DNA of 64,000 nucleotides, from assembly GCF_054482525.1 (NCBI RefSeq), contig NZ_CM137006.1. One strand, 5' to 3'. The notes beneath the pieces were generated by a model. That model did no database searches. It saw nothing but the letters and a program-made list of their open reading frames with translations, and had not been told where the DNA came from. The translations under genes and the position numbers were made by a program. Within the stretch, counting starts at the first letter, position 1. Each line of letters begins with the position of its first letter. This document shows positions 6,879-51,964 of this stretch, in pieces.

Positions 6879-9338
6879 ATGGACACCGTGAATATTTATC
6901 GACTCTCTTTTATATCCTGCCTGGTCATGGCGATGCCTTCCGCATTGGCGGTCGAATTCAATCTGAATGTTCTCGATAAATCAATGCGCGACCGCATTGA
7001 TATTTCATTATTAAAGGAAAAAGGAGTCATTGCTCCCGGTGAATATTTTGTTAGCGTTGCGGTGAATAACAACCAAATCAGTAATGGGCAAAAAATCAAC
7101 TGGCAAAAAAAGGGTGACAAAACCATTCCATGCATCAATGATTCACTGGTCGATAAATTTGGTTTAAAACCAGATATCCGTCAGTCCTTGCCACAGATAG
7201 ATCGGTGTATTGATTTCAGTTCCCGACCTGAAATGCTCTTCAATTTCGATCAAGCCAATCAGCAACTGAATATTAGTATTCCGCAAGCCTGGCTGGCGTG
7301 GCACTCAGAAAACTGGGCTCCCCCCTCTACATGGAAAGAAGGTGTTGCCGGTGTCCTGATGGATTACAACTTGTTTGCCAGCAGCTACCGCCCACAGGAC
7401 GGCAGCAGCAGCACTAATCTGAATGCCTACGGTACCGCCGGAATTAACGCCGGGGCATGGCGCTTACGCAGTGATTACCAGCTTAATAAGACCGATAGCG
7501 AAGATAACCATGACCAGTCAGGCGGAATATCGCGCACCTATCTTTTTCGTCCATTACCGCAATTAGGCTCTAAGTTAACCCTCGGCGAAACCGATTTCAG
7601 TTCCAATATTTTCGACGGCTTTTCTTATACCGGCGCGGCACTGGCAAGTGACGATCGGATGTTACCGTGGGAGCTACGCGGCTACGCCCCACAAATCAGC
7701 GGCATTGCACAAACCAACGCCACCGTCACCGTGAGTCACTCAGGGCGAGTTATTTACCAGAAAAAAGTCCCACCAGGTCCGTTTATCATTGATGACCTTA
7801 ATCAGTCCGTCCAGGGTACGTTGGATGTCAAAGTGACGGAAGAAGATGGTCGGGTGAACAATTTCCAGGTTTCGGCAGCATCGACGCCCTTCCTGACTCG
7901 CCAGGGACAGGTTCGCTATAAATTGGCCGCGGGTCAGCCACGGCCCTCCATGTCACATCAAACTGAAAATGAAACCTTTTTTAGCAATGAAGTTTCCTGG
8001 GGGATGCTGTCAAATACCTCGCTGTACGGCGGCCTGCTGATTTCGGGTGACGACTACCATTCTGCCGCAATGGGTATCGGGCAAAATATGCTCTGGCTTG
8101 GTGCATTGTCGTTTGATGTCACCTGGGCCAGTAGTCAGTTTGATACTCAGCAGGACGAGCGGGGCTTAAGTTACCGCTTTAATTACAGCAAACAAGTGGA
8201 TGCCACTAACAGCACGATTTCGCTCGCCGCTTATCGCTTTTCAGATCGTCATTTTCACAGCTACGCCAACTATCTGGATCACAAATACAACGACAACGAT
8301 GCGCAGGACGAAAAACAGACGATCAGCTTATCCGTGGGGCAACCGATTACCCCACTGAACCTCAATCTGTACGCCAACCTGCTGCATCAAACCTGGTGGA
8401 ATGCAGACGCCTCCACGACCGCCAACATCACGGCGGGTTTTAATGTTGATATTGGTAACTGGAGAGATATCTCGATCTCGACGTCATTCAATACAACCCA
8501 TTACGAAGATAAAGATCGCGACAATCAGATTTACCTGTCGATTTCGCTTCCCTTCGGTAACGGGGGGCGGGTCGGTTATGACATGCAAAACAGTAGTCAA
8601 AGCACCACGCACCGCATGTCGTGGAATGATACGTTGGATGAACGTAATAGCTGGGGCATGTCTACCGGACTGCAATCCGACCGTCCGGATAATGGAGCCC
8701 AGGTGAGCGGTAACTATCAGCACCTGAGTTCAGCGGGTGAGTGGGATATTTCTGGTACCTATGCCGCCAATGATTACAGTTCCGTCAGCAGCAGCTGGAG
8801 CGGTTCTTTCACGGCAACTCAATATGGTGCGGCGTTCCATCGTCGCAGCTCCACCAATGAACCACGTCTGATGGTCAGTACCGATGGCGTGGCAGATATT
8901 CCGGTTCAGGGCAATCTCGACTACACCAACCATTTTGGCATTGCGGTGGTGCCGTTGATTTCCAGTTATCAGCCTTCCACCGTGGCGGTGAACATGAATG
9001 ATTTACCCGACGGCGTAACAGTGGCAGATAACGTTATCAAAGAAACGTGGATTGAAGGCGCGATAGGTTACAAATCGCTGGCTTCCCGTTCCGGTAAAGA
9101 CGTTAACGTCATCATTCGCAACGCCAGCGGTCAGTTCCCTCCCCTCGGTGCGGATATCCGCCAGGATGATAGCGGCATTAGCGTGGGGATGGTTGGCGAG
9201 GAAGGACATGCCTGGTTAAGTGGAGTCGCTGAAAATCAACAATTTACCGTGGTCTGGGGTAATAGCCAGCGTTGCTCGATCCATCTTCCTGAACATATGG
9301 AAGACACCGCAAATCGCCTGATTTTACCTTGTCATTAA
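6879..9338 (+). CDS. ybgQ: Fimbrial outer-membrane usher
   Basis: ~820-aa ORF of usher size with a signal peptide (start choice among nearby codons uncertain); sits between the subunit and chaperone genes. Confidence 0.8.
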   Translation: MDTVNIYRLSFISCLVMAMPSALAVEFNLNVLDKSMRDRIDISLLKEKGVIAPGEYFVSVAVNNNQISNGQKINWQKKGDKTIPCINDSLVDKFGLKPDIRQSLPQIDRCIDFSSRPEMLFNFDQANQQLNISIPQAWLAWHSENWAPPSTWKEGVAGVLMDYNLFASSYRPQDGSSSTNLNAYGTAGINAGAWRLRSDYQLNKTDSEDNHDQSGGISRTYLFRPLPQLGSKLTLGETDFSSNIFDGFSYTGAALASDDRMLPWELRGYAPQISGIAQTNATVTVSHSGRVIYQKKVPPGPFIIDDLNQSVQGTLDVKVTEEDGRVNNFQVSAASTPFLTRQGQVRYKLAAGQPRPSMSHQTENETFFSNEVSWGMLSNTSLYGGLLISGDDYHSAAMGIGQNMLWLGALSFDVTWASSQFDTQQDERGLSYRFNYSKQVDATNSTISLAAYRFSDRHFHSYANYLDHKYNDNDAQDEKQTISLSVGQPITPLNLNLYANLLHQTWWNADASTTANITAGFNVDIGNWRDISISTSFNTTHYEDKDRDNQIYLSISLPFGNGGRVGYDMQNSSQSTTHRMSWNDTLDERNSWGMSTGLQSDRPDNGAQVSGNYQHLSSAGEWDISGTYAANDYSSVSSSWSGSFTATQYGAAFHRRSSTNEPRLMVSTDGVADIPVQGNLDYTNHFGIAVVPLISSYQPSTVAVNMNDLPDGVTVADNVIKETWIEGAIGYKSLASRSGKDVNVIIRNASGQFPPLGADIRQDDSGISVGMVGEEGHAWLSGVAENQQFTVVWGNSQRCSIHLPEHMEDTANRLILPCH

Positions 9339-24200: not shown

Positions 24201-24775
24201 ACCCGCTCACACCAGCCGAGTACCCACCACGGCCCCTGCGGACTGTTCGTCGCCAGATAACGATGCGGACTCAGGCGAAGCTCTTCCGGCAGCGCCTGCC
24301 AGAGTGCGGCCAGCCGGTGACCTTCATCCAGTTTCGCCACGCCGCCACGCACCAGCCAGAGTGACTCGCTGCGGCTGTAACCGTCCTCACCGGGAAACAG
24401 GTGCTCAAAATACAGGCTCCTGCCGCCGTTATCACTGAGTATCAGTGTGTTATCGCGCAGCTGTAAGCGGATATCCGCGGGCATTTTCCAGCCGGGGCCG
24501 AGGCTCCCCACCGGCGCGGGCGTTTTTGTCCGGTAACTGCTGTAGGTGCGGGAGAGGATGAACGGCAGCGGGCCGGGCAGGGCAAGGTCGGTTTCGCCGG
24601 GAAGGACCTTCGCACCGAGCAGCGGATTGACCGGATGGCCGGACGTCACCCCGCCGGGGCACACCGAACAGGCCACGCCGGTGGGGGCACCGATGCGCAC
24701 CCCGGCTGAACCCTGAACAATGCTACCGCCATACTGCGTCATGTCGCCCTGACGCGCCGCCGGTTTTCCGCTCAT
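21260..24775 (-). CDS. rhsC: Rhs-family protein, N-terminal domain and YD-repeat core (RhsC-like), truncated by an in-frame TAG
   Basis: 1171-aa [32 protein letters not shown]... with many YD repeats, ending ...CAEYDEWGN; position between ybfA and ybgA matches rhsC. Confidence 0.85.
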
Positions 24776-38922: not shown

Positions 38923-40328
38923 TCAGAAGATGGTGAATGGTGCGATTACCATAAATTTCACGTCGCGCTCATCCTGGAAGATGTTACCGTAACCGCCGCC
39001 CCAGCTTGGGATGTCGGAGTGGTTGTCGTATTCGGTGAAGTGCAGTTTGAACATCGTGCCTTTAGCGCGACCGTCCTGAATGGTGTAGACCGCATCCAGG
39101 CTGTATGCAGACTCTTCAATAGTCCGGTTCTTGTCGTAGTACGCATCCGGGTTGCTCTGCCAGGTAGCGGGTTTAGCATCCCATGCGTAAACGTAGGAAG
39201 CGCCGATGGCGAAGCCTGGAAGATTCCAGTTTTTCAGATCATACATCGCGCCGAAGAAAACCGCTTTTTCGCCGTTGGCGTTAAAGTCAGAACGGTTATC
39301 CCACCAGATATCCAGGCGGCCGTTCGAGGAAGCGTAGGTTGGGGTCATACGTTGCAGGAAGTATCCCTGCTGACCGTCGGCTTTAACCCAGGTGCCTTCC
39401 AGACGCAAATCCACTACGTCAGCCGCCCGGTAACCAAAGGTCAACGCTTGCAGCCAGGCGGTGCCGTCATAAAGATCGTTGACGCTGCGATCGTCAACTT
39501 TATCGCGCGTACCGTAGAACTGGTAGCTGGTGGTTAACGGGCTACCGGCGATATCAAATTTGTAGCTGGCTTTGGCAAAATATTGATCGATATACCCTTC
39601 TGCCTGACCAAATGCCGCTTCCAGTACAAAGTTATTTTTGAAGTCGTACTTCGCACCAATAGAATGCAGATAATCAACTTTGGTGGTTTTATCGTCTGAT
39701 AAAACTCATCCATTTCCAGATGCCACGGTGCTTTGTATTCGTTGGTCCACATGTAGGAGAAACTCAACGCACCAGCTTCGCCGTAATCAAAATTCGCCCC
39801 GGCTTCCGCACCCTGATAAGTACCCGGCATAAAACTCCAGTGCGGCGCTAACAGCGTCTGACCGGTTGGCTGAATATAACCTGCCCTCGCCCACACCGGG
39901 CCGTATTTAAATTTGGCCGCTGCTTTATACAGGCTTATACCGCTTTTATCGCCGGACCAGTCTTCGTCATAGGCTTTATTGCTTTTTGAAAACGCGATTT
40001 CGTTCGGGTGAGAGCTGTCACCGTTTTCCGCCATTTCAATCGCCGTAAACGCAGCAATATCAAGGCCGAACATATCAGCAGCATAACCGGACTGAAAATC
40101 GAGGTTGGCATTCCAGGTGGAGTGAGAAAGGTTGGTTTTGTATTTGTCGCCGTCGGTAACATCTTTACGGTCGCGTTCACGCTGCCAGTAATAGATACCG
40201 CCGGTTAAGGTTGAATCGTCGATGAATCCTTCGGCGCGAGCCTCCGGCATTGCCATAAAGCCCGACATTGCTGTAACACCGGCGATAGCCAGCGCCAGCG
40301 TACTACGTTTGCCACTAAACGTACGCAT
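38923..40328 (-). pseudogene. chiP: Chitoporin ChiP (outer-membrane porin), reading frame broken by an apparent 1-bp deletion
   Basis: Track ORFs 39534..40328 (264 aa) and 38923..39444 (173 aa) are the N- and C-terminal parts of one porin; the upstream frame diverges after ...HLEMDEFYQ into nonsense and stops, while shifting by one base at ~39694-39697 restores [22 protein letters not shown]... continuous with the C-terminal ORF. Confidence 0.8.
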
Positions 40329-40685
40329 GGGTTAATCCTCTTTGACGTATAAATTGCTGCACCAAAGGTGAACAGCGAAAAAAATAAAAATAAAAAAAGT
40401 AGCGTTGAGAAAAGTCTCGCTGACTACAGGAACAGACTATTTTTCGCGACGCGAATTATCAATCTCTTTCTGTAACCAGAATGTAAGAACATGAGCAACC
40501 GCACATATTTTGATGATTTTTGTTACAAGGCTTAAGTTTGCAGTTGAAAGGCTTGCAGAAGAATAAAAGCGTGAATTTCCAGCAAGATGAAAACGGTTAC
40601 ATTTTATTTAATTATGGTTTGTGATTTTAAATTTGTTTTATGGATAAATTGCGAAGCGGAATTAATTCGCGAAGAAAAGCAGAAA

Positions 40686-42643: not shown

Positions 42644-44590
42644 TTACTTTTTGATTTCATACAGCGGTGTTTGACCCGCCACAACATGGCCCTGAGCTTT
42701 AATGATCAAGCCACTGAAATCGTCAATATTGCTGCAAACCACCGGGCTAATCATCGAGCGGGCGTTAGCGTTCAGGTAATCCAGATCCATTTCCAGAATC
42801 GGTTGCCCTGCGCTTACCTGCGCGCCCTCTTCCACCAGACGTTTAAAGCCTTTACCTTCCAGCGCTACGGTGTCGATACCCATATGGACGACAATCTCCG
42901 CGCCTTTTTCGGTTTCCAGGCAGAACGCGTGGTTGGTGTTGAAGATTTTCACGATTGTCCCTGCGGCTGGTGATACGACGATTTTATCTGTCGGTTTCAC
43001 CGCCACACCGTCACCCACCGCTTTGCTGGCGAATGCTTCGTCAGGAACCTGATCCAGTGCCACAACATCACCGGTAATCGGCGATACCAGCTCCGCGATA
43101 GACACCGCGTTTGGTACAGCCTGCGGTTTTGCTACAGGCGCGGCAGTTGCAGGCGCAGTTTCAGCTGACGCAGCGGCTACCGGACCACGGGCAACAACTT
43201 TCTTCATTGCATCGTCAATGGATTCCGCTTTCGCGCCAACAATCACCTGAATAGTCTGTTTGTTCAGTTTCACTACCCCAGAAGCACCCAGACGTTTACA
43301 CATCGCATCGTTGACGCGAGCCGAGTCAACCACGGTCAGGCGCAGACGAGTAATACAGGCGTCAATTGCTTTCAGGTTGTCAGTACCGCCCACCGCAGCA
43401 ATATAGTTGGTCGCCAGTTGAGTCAGACCTTCTTCTGTGTTGCTGTTGGCTTCTTCAGTAACGATCTCGTCTTCTTTATCTTCACGGCCCGGCGTTTTCA
43501 GGTTGAACATACGGATAACCAAACTGAACACCACGAAGTAGATAGCGAAGAAGACAACACCCATAACCAGCAGCATCCAGACGTTCTGGCTGGCGGCCGG
43601 CAGGTTATACATCAACGCGTAGTCGATAGCCCCCGCAGAGAAGGAGAAGCCCGCGTGGATACCCAGCAGCGTTGCCACAAACAGGCTGATACCGGTCAGC
43701 AGTGCGTGCAGGAGGTACAGCAGCGGCGCAAGGAACATGAACAGGAATTCCAGCGGCTCAGTCACACCGGTCAGGAACGCAGTAACAGCAACAGAAAGCA
43801 GCATCCCGCCAACCATCGGACGACGCTCTTTCGGTGCTGCGAAGTACATCGCCAGCGCCGCACCCGGCAGACCGAACATCATGATCGGGAAGAAGCCGGA
43901 CATGAACATCCCCGCGGTGCCGTCACCAGCGTAGAAACGGTTGATGTCGCCGTGGAAAACCGTACCCGCCGCGTTGGTGAATTCACCAATCTGGAACCAG
44001 GCGATGGTGTTCAGCACCTGATGCAGACCGGTTGGGATCAGCAGACGGTTGATGAAACCAAAGATACCGGAACCCAGCGCGCCCGCAGAAACGATCCACT
44101 CGCCGCCTGCATGGATAGCGTGCTGTACCGGCGGCCAGACGTAACCAAAAATGGCCGCCAGCACCAGGCAGAAGAAGCCGGTGGCAATCGGCACAAAGCG
44201 TTTGCCGCCGAAGAAGCTCAGGAAGTCAGGCAGTTTAATATCGGACCAACGGTTATAGGCTGCGCCACCAACCAGACCGGTAATGATACCTGCCAGTACA
44301 CCCATGTTAATTTCTGGGTTGATGGTCACCATCGCTTTGGTTAACACAAAGTAACCTACCGCACCCGCCAGCGCCGCCGCACCTGCGCTGTCTTTCGACC
44401 AGCTGGATGCCACACCGATGGCGAAGATTAATGCGAGGTTATCAAAAATCGCACCGCCCGCCTGGGCAATAAACGCAACGTTAAGTAAATCTGGCTGACC
44501 GAATCGCAGCAACAGCGCCGCCACCGGCAGCACCGCGATAGGGAGCTGTAACGCCCTACCGAGTCGCTGGAAAAAACCTAAAATATTCAT
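42644..44590 (-). CDS. nagE: PTS N-acetylglucosamine-specific EIICBA component
   Basis: 648 aa, polytopic N-terminus plus EIIB/EIIA domains. Confidence 0.95.
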   Translation of the reverse strand: MNILGFFQRLGRALQLPIAVLPVAALLLRFGQPDLLNVAFIAQAGGAIFDNLALIFAIGVASSWSKDSAGAAALAGAVGYFVLTKAMVTINPEINMGVLAGIITGLVGGAAYNRWSDIKLPDFLSFFGGKRFVPIATGFFCLVLAAIFGYVWPPVQHAIHAGGEWIVSAGALGSGIFGFINRLLIPTGLHQVLNTIAWFQIGEFTNAAGTVFHGDINRFYAGDGTAGMFMSGFFPIMMFGLPGAALAMYFAAPKERRPMVGGMLLSVAVTAFLTGVTEPLEFLFMFLAPLLYLLHALLTGISLFVATLLGIHAGFSFSAGAIDYALMYNLPAASQNVWMLLVMGVVFFAIYFVVFSLVIRMFNLKTPGREDKEDEIVTEEANSNTEEGLTQLATNYIAAVGGTDNLKAIDACITRLRLTVVDSARVNDAMCKRLGASGVVKLNKQTIQVIVGAKAESIDDAMKKVVARGPVAAASAETAPATAAPVAKPQAVPNAVSIAELVSPITGDVVALDQVPDEAFASKAVGDGVAVKPTDKIVVSPAAGTIVKIFNTNHAFCLETEKGAEIVVHMGIDTVALEGKGFKRLVEEGAQVSAGQPILEMDLDYLNANARSMISPVVCSNIDDFSGLIIKAQGHVVAGQTPLYEIKK

Positions 44591-51260: not shown

Positions 51261-51337
51261 GGCTACGTAGCTCAGTTGGTTAGAGCACATCACTCATAAT
51301 GATGGGGTCACAGGTTCGAATCCCGTCGTAGCCACCA
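51261..51337 (+). tRNA. metT: tRNA-Met (elongator, anticodon CAU)
   Basis: 77-nt GGCUACGUAGCUCAGUUGGUUAGAGCACAUCACUCAUAAUGAUGGGGUCACAGGUUCGAAUCCCGUCGUAGCCACCA with encoded CCA. Confidence 0.9.
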
Positions 51338-51345
51338 TCTTTTTT

Positions 51346-51430
51346 GCGGGAGTGGCGAAATTGGTAGACGCACCAGATTTAGGTTCTGGCGCCGCAAGGT
51401 GTGCGAGTTCAAGTCTCGCCTCCCGCACCA
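51346..51430 (+). tRNA. leuW: tRNA-Leu (anticodon UAG)
   Basis: 85-nt class II tRNA with long variable arm, ending CACCA. Confidence 0.85.
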
Positions 51431-51453
51431 TTCACCAGAAAGCGTTGTACGGA

Positions 51454-51528
51454 TGGGGTATCGCCAAGCGGTAAGGCACCGGTTTTTGATACCGGCATTC
51501 CCTGGTTCGAATCCAGGTACCCCAGCCA
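51454..51528 (+). tRNA. glnU: tRNA-Gln (anticodon UUG)
   Basis: 75-nt UGGGGUAUCGCCAAGCGGUAAGGCACCGGUUUUUGAUACCGG...CCAGCCA. Confidence 0.9.
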
Positions 51529-51562
51529 TCTTCTTCGAGTAAGCGGTTCACCGCCCGGTTAT

Positions 51563-51637
51563 TGGGGTATCGCCAAGCGGTAAGGCACCGGTTTTTGATA
51601 CCGGCATTCCCTGGTTCGAATCCAGGTACCCCAGCCA
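51563..51637 (+). tRNA. glnW: tRNA-Gln (anticodon UUG)
   Basis: Identical copy of the preceding tRNA-Gln. Confidence 0.9.
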
Positions 51638-51652
51638 TCGAAGAAACAATCT

Positions 51653-51729
51653 GGCTACGTAGCTCAGTTGGTTAGAGCACATCACTCATAATGATGGGGT
51701 CACAGGTTCGAATCCCGTCGTAGCCACCA
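51653..51729 (+). tRNA. metU: tRNA-Met (elongator, anticodon CAU)
   Basis: Identical copy of the first tRNA-Met. Confidence 0.9.
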
Positions 51730-51777
51730 AATTCTGAATGTGTCGAATATGTTCGGCAAATTCAAAAACCAATTTGT

Positions 51778-51852
51778 TGGGGTATCGCCAAGCGGTAAGG
51801 CACCGGATTCTGATTCCGGCATTCCGAGGTTCGAATCCTCGTACCCCAGCCA
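51778..51852 (+). tRNA. glnV: tRNA-Gln (anticodon CUG)
   Basis: 75-nt; anticodon loop GGAUUCUGAUUCC. Confidence 0.9.
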
Positions 51853-51889
51853 ATTTATTCAAGACGCTTACCTTGTAAGTGCACCCAGT

Positions 51890-51964
51890 TGGGGTATCGC
51901 CAAGCGGTAAGGCACCGGATTCTGATTCCGGCATTCCGAGGTTCGAATCCTCGTACCCCAGCCA
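51890..51964 (+). tRNA. glnX: tRNA-Gln (anticodon CUG)
   Basis: Identical copy of the preceding CUG tRNA-Gln. Confidence 0.9.

Follow-up and report, generated by a model that had tools for sequence, protein, structure and literature searches.

A single-base deletion in the chitoporin gene chiP of an Escherichia coli genome, probably a recent and strain-private loss of function

The chitoporin gene chiP is interrupted by the loss of one nucleotide in the stretch of DNA analysed here (64,000 bases, referred to below as the window), which corresponds to the E. coli sdh-gltA ... kdp ... fur-chiQ-chiP-glnS-nagE-nagBACD region. On balance, we judge the lesion to be a recent, strain-private loss-of-function mutation that is probably real rather than an artefact. 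If it is real, it constitutes one more independent loss of chiP beside those of the O157 lineages, and if it is an artefact, it calls for a one-base correction of the assembly. Taken on its own the finding matters little, being an ordinary single-base frameshift and a routine allele. The disrupted gene and its parts are as follows.

38923..40328, minus strand: chiP (chitoporin), 1406 nt as against 1407 nt when intact, disrupted by a 1-nt deletion
39695..39696, minus strand: site of the chiP deletion; TT on the plus strand of the relatives (sense AA in CAGAACGAT), a single T/A at 39695 in the window
39534..40328, minus strand: truncated chiP ORF, 264 aa, with its ATG at 40328 and a premature TAA-class stop at 39534-39536
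38923..39693, minus strand: out-of-frame 3' remnant of chiP, covering ChiP model positions 210-460 and including the C-terminal ...PFTIF

The first-pass annotation had placed an apparent one-base deletion at this point of chiP, and the comparison with E. coli reference genes that it recommended bears this out. In a search of 5,426 complete E. coli genomes, of which 5,424 contain a match to the 1406-nt gene, the best matches were found in PCN033, SCU-102 and 19KM1776 (99.9% identity over 1407 bases), all of which have chiP annotated as intact (WP_001258844.1, 468 aa). A global alignment against these closest genomes has one 1-nt gap, at 39695/39696, and 0 mismatches elsewhere in the 1406 nt, so that the relatives are intact and identical but for one base. 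The gap falls at gene nt 634/635 and breaks codon N212; on the sense strand the relatives read CAGAACGAT and the window CAGACGAT, with one A missing, and the repair that had been proposed (cagaacgat) is the exact sequence present in the relatives. A compensating second indel within chiP is ruled out by the same alignment, with its single gap. Since the break in the frame is a direct observation on the sequence, chance is not at issue. The position of the gene between glnS and chiQ-fur, behind a leader with a ChiX pairing site, establishes orthology by position, and the synteny is the same as in PCN033, SCU-102 and 19KM1776.

The truncated ORF consists of a signal peptide and native sequence up to Q211, followed by 53 out-of-frame residues, which agrees with the earlier description of a frame that reads normally and then turns into nonsense and stops (211 native residues plus 53, giving the ORF of 264 aa). 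The downstream frame holds the remainder of ChiP with no further change; the sole start codon available in its frame is the TTG at 39444, and it has no signal peptide. To place these pieces in the protein family we used the NCBIfam ChiP equivalog NF047822, for which membership means a score of at least 750 bits (the curated cut-off) over the full model of 460 positions. For the upstream ORF the score is 360 bits, over model positions 1-209, and for the downstream frame it is 480 bits, over positions 210-460, and neither piece thus qualifies as a member; the two matches abut exactly, as expected from the claim that the shifted frame is continuous with the C-terminal ORF. With 852 bits for the intact allele of the relatives, the identification of the gene as chiP, encoding about 468 aa once repaired, is likewise upheld. 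The intact 468-aa product is matched by Pfam PF03573 (OprD), and the EcChiP structures 7VU1/7VTZ, in which the mature chain starts at residue 33, match this assignment. EcChiP is monomeric and forms an 18-stranded barrel of the OprD type (PMC9582717). The truncated ORF ends after 179 mature and 53 junk residues and is without ...PFTIF, and it therefore lacks the complete 18-stranded barrel and the C-terminal aromatic beta-signal that define the OprD family. The DNA is chiP by descent, and the encoded products are not complete ChiP members. For annotation, the locus is best labelled as a chiP pseudogene (frameshifted) rather than as two hypothetical ORFs.

Outer-membrane barrels need a C-terminal aromatic signal for their assembly. 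In the course of events that we propose, one A would have been lost from a 2-base run in chiP in an E. coli of the PCN033 / SCU-102 clade, translation would change frame after Q211 and halt 53 codons on, and the product would retain the signal peptide and approximately 41% of the mature 18-stranded barrel (179/436 residues), while the 3' remnant would be left with neither a signal peptide nor a good start codon. Because such a product would be without the C-terminal Phe-ending strand needed for outer-membrane assembly, no functional chitoporin is expected from it. We infer that the allele is a protein null; if the lesion is real, the strain makes no chitoporin, and its growth should be poor on chito-oligosaccharides exceeding the size that the general porins admit. 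The pseudogene would be young, as it shows neither a further lesion nor any substitution when set against the intact allele.

One could also speculate that the broken gene is leaky, given a short run of adenines close to the deletion.

39687..39690, minus strand: A-AAA run (sense ACG ATA AAA CC) just downstream of the deletion, noted from the sequence only

A -1 slip at this run would, in a fraction of translations, bring the ribosome back into frame and produce a full-length ChiP carrying N212T/D213I. The tRNA-Lys is slippery on A-runs, as in dnaX, and in the mutant frame, ACG ATA AAA CCA, its re-pairing one base back would lead to a 468-aa product with two residues changed, with the rare ATA codon just upstream of AAA possibly slowing the ribosome. 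We nevertheless regard this as highly improbable: the full X XXY YYZ heptamer is absent, as are an SD-like stimulator upstream and a structural one downstream, and spontaneous slippage on a run of four A is typically well under a few percent. Nor can conservation argue for the slip, since the lesion is a singleton. Programmed ribosomal frameshifting and phase variation were considered in their own right and rejected, as the break is not conserved, the tract is AA and there is no repeat.

The gene is well conserved, and the deletion in it is a singleton. When a 60-nt sequence with the deletion junction in its middle was searched against 5,426 complete E. coli genomes, approximately 5,411 gave a match, none of them free of the gap; the matches listed for this query all span 61 bases, and about 5,410 genomes have the intact junction. 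By exact look-up, the 264-aa product is absent from a 153-billion-gene catalogue of public gene calls, and exact 31-mer scans found the 31-nt deletion junction in neither the metagenome nor the species-representative collections. These last scans carry little weight, because the intact-junction controls gave just 12 and 3 matches in the two collections (including E. albertii and E. whittamii). The intact ChiP protein, in contrast to the truncated one, occurs in 8,062 catalogue blocks, which makes it too common to be of use as a lineage marker. Together with the absence of disruption in 56 of 56 sampled genomes outside O157 (see below), this indicates that chiP is normally kept.

The first-pass annotation had left open whether the gene is a pseudogene or a homopolymer sequencing error. 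Both alternatives stand, but the label of homopolymer fits poorly, the site being a 2-base run (AA). The decision between them draws on the whole window, in which the following features are of relevance.

20600-24775, minus strand: Rhs core gene with an internal TAG at 21260-21262 (CAG in PCN033), common to SCU-102
51261-51961: seven-tRNA cluster Met-Leu-Gln-Gln-Met-Gln-Gln, matching the relatives
9261: YbgQ usher D795N, private with respect to the nearest sister, GCA_017732615.1
15462: PxpB A4V, private with respect to the same sister
40392, minus strand: chiP leader SNP, A->T on the sense strand, 64 nt before the ATG; extends a run of T6 to T7
43215, minus strand: NagE G459D, private (nagE 42644-44590)

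An error of consensus or assembly, in which the base was dropped in base-calling or polishing and chiP is intact in the isolate, is possible, although we lean away from it. The deletion occurs in no other public sequence searched, and an error would look the same; the gene is otherwise nucleotide-identical to the intact allele of a highly conserved protein. The window crosses both the 4.2-kb Rhs repeat, where the short-read contigs of sister strains end, and the seven-tRNA cluster, so the assembly is probably long-read or hybrid. Residual 1-base deletions do occur in assemblies of these kinds. The nearby leader SNP lengthens a homopolymer, a context prone to miscalls, and the three private SNPs in coding sequence are without exception nonsynonymous, a pattern towards which unfiltered noise would lean. 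The same pattern is also expected of very recent real mutations, and its probability by chance is around 0.4 if some 3/4 of random coding changes are nonsynonymous (an estimate).

Several observations speak against an error. The 64,000 bases are collinear with those of PCN033 and SCU-102, from which they differ by 15 and 6 SNPs, respectively, and in each comparison by a single indel, the chiP gap; collinearity extends to 19KM1776, with 14 SNPs and 3 gaps, of which two stem from deletions that 19KM1776 itself has in its Rhs gene. Among 267 homopolymer runs of at least 5 bases in the window, the number differing in length from PCN033 or SCU-102 is 0. With all 267 runs in agreement and the chiP gap as the only indel, indel errors are not a general weakness of this assembly, and the 2-base site in a window free of homopolymer miscalls thus tilts the balance towards a real mutation. 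The deleted A belongs to an AA dinucleotide with no Dam/Dcm motif at the site, and such a motif is found at 0/4 of the private SNPs. Apart from the deletion, the private changes consist of substitutions in ordinary contexts, a form that consensus errors seldom take. All other CDSs lying whole within the window are open, save for the Rhs nonsense codon, whose presence in SCU-102 marks it as inherited.

The branch leading to this strain itself looks real, since AbrB G71V of the window recurs in dozens of public contigs of independent origin, whose identity to the window is 99.97-99.99%; these sister contigs end before chiP. The nearest sister, GCA_017732615.1, overlaps the window for 21 kb, over which the window differs at 9261 and 15462 only. 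The full private set of the window comprises YbgQ D795N, PxpB A4V, NagE G459D, the leader SNP at 40392 and the chiP deletion, and the private load is similar in PCN033 (4) and 19KM1776 (4 SNPs and 2 indels). Neither the NagE G459D nor the YbgQ D795N protein occurs as such in the public gene catalogue, and PxpB A4V is otherwise seen only in distant lineages, at about 95% identity. The NagE SNP and the chiP deletion both create the sense hexamer GACGAT, which is probably a coincidence.

The Rhs gene carries further variation: 19KM1776 has two separate 1-bp deletions in it, and five SNPs at 21248-21288 resemble a short recombination tract. Its decay seems to be under way independently in several strains of the clade. 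Two other features lie towards the end of the window.

59187-61064, minus strand: rhomboid-family intramembrane protease gene, 625 aa, between gltI and lnt; presumably not at this position in K-12
62423-62585: SroC sRNA in the gltI-gltJ spacer, matching the relatives

If the mutation is real, as we think probable, the question arises of what it does to the remainder of the operon, for which two flanking features are of importance.

40336..40347, minus strand: core pairing site of the ChiX sRNA, 12 nt, intact, overlapping the Shine-Dalgarno sequence (CGTCAAAGAGGA); its role is described in PMC4098024 and PMC6582626
38547..38873, minus strand: chiQ lipoprotein gene, 108 aa, intact, with its own GAGGA ribosome-binding site

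The suggestion that the regulatory 5' region is retained holds for the ChiX pairing/SD site, where pairing of the leader core with K-12 ChiX is predicted, but not for the leader in full, which carries the unique SNP at 40392. The 200-nt chiP leader has a match in 5,424 complete genomes, with an identity of at least 99% in 4,883 of these, and the SNP is found in none of the 5,424. Its position is not within the ChiX core, and both the predicted duplex and the predicted fold of the leader are unaltered by it. The gene chiQ is retained, as had been claimed, and is identical to that of the relatives; it now stands behind approximately 660 nt of untranslated RNA. In Salmonella, blocked translation of chiP exposes a Rho loading site and lowers the expression of chiQ (PMC6582626). 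Rho-dependent polarity across the newly untranslated stretch may reduce chiQ here as well. C-rich, G-poor stretches past the premature stop are present at 39596-39506, 39362-39285 and 39089-38973; the strongest C>G stretch, at 40194-40065, is still translated in the mutant, and the windows beyond the new stop are weaker.

We surveyed the integrity of chiP in an evenly spaced sample of 60 complete genomes. The gene was disrupted in about 4 of the 60, all four belonging to O157, and in 0/56 outside O157. The three O157:H7 records in the sample have a chiP of 1406 nt, in which a G is lost at gene nt 437 within a GGG run, and which RefSeq lists as 'frameshifted' (e.g. RIMD 0509939, L037 601-2006). 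The fourth, the sorbitol-fermenting O157 strain 493/89, gave a split match, with two partial CDSs around an IS30 (L038 872-3501). In both O157:H7 and 493/89, chiQ is intact. Being common to three O157:H7 genomes of the sample, the O157:H7 lesion is inherited, and the loss of a G at nt 437 as against an A at nt 634/635 makes it independent of that in the window. Natural E. coli have thus lost chiP before, and to this kind of event, already known, the window adds a private allele that is new. The product name 'chitoporin' without 'ChiP' was also tried as a marker of pseudogenes and rejected, the gene of H8 being intact.

These earlier losses raise the possibility that the loss of chiP was selected, perhaps together with the leader SNP and NagE G459D, as an adaptive shutdown of chitosugar/GlcNAc entry, for instance one that lessens the entry of aminoglycosides; we find this improbable. 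Its appeal lies in the location of three of the five private changes within 3.5 kb, two at chiP and one in nagE, and in the inactivation of chiP on at least two independent occasions in O157 lineages. According to a preprint (10.1101/2022.09.05.506620), aminoglycosides pass through ChiP and deletion of chiP lowers susceptibility to them, which offers a conceivable selective reason. Yet the clustering is not significant in tests that avoid a choice of genes after the fact (the triple at P=0.075, the pair at P=0.20), and a significant mutation cluster at chiP/nagE is rejected on these values; the leader SNP, as a change outside the ChiX core with no effect on the predicted duplex and fold, does not fit readily either. 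NagE G459 lies in what we take to be the C-terminal part of the IIB domain, presumably at a position that is not conserved in the paralogue PtsG. Expression of chiP is normally shut off by ChiX and NagC (PMC4098024), so its loss should be nearly neutral in most conditions and drift suffices to explain it. The wider picture, in which chiP would be a recurrent target of inactivation (O157:H7, 493/89 and this PCN033-like strain) because a silent porin is a liability, and in which the leader and nagE changes would belong to the same selected shutdown, strikes us as hardly more than a long shot.

In comparison with E. coli ChiP (YbfM; 7VU1/7VTZ, NF047822, PF03573), the window shares the locus glnS-chiP-chiQ-fur, the leader, the ChiX site and the signal peptide, and all its codons match the intact allele of the closest strains but for the missing base; it differs in that the frame breaks after residue 211, so that no complete barrel is encoded. 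The ChiX/Rho polarity of chiPQ (Bossi et al. 2012, as reviewed in PMC6582626) likewise involves untranslated chiP RNA upstream of chiQ. In the known case, the block on translation lies at the start codon and loading of Rho takes place early in the gene, whereas in the window any polarity would presumably come from the later stretches. The O157:H7 pseudogene offers a parallel, a 1-nt deletion with an intact chiQ downstream, and in 493/89 the same gene is inactivated with chiQ intact, but by insertion of IS30. The O157:H7 allele and that of the window are set apart by site and lineage, the latter being a singleton in a PCN033-like background.
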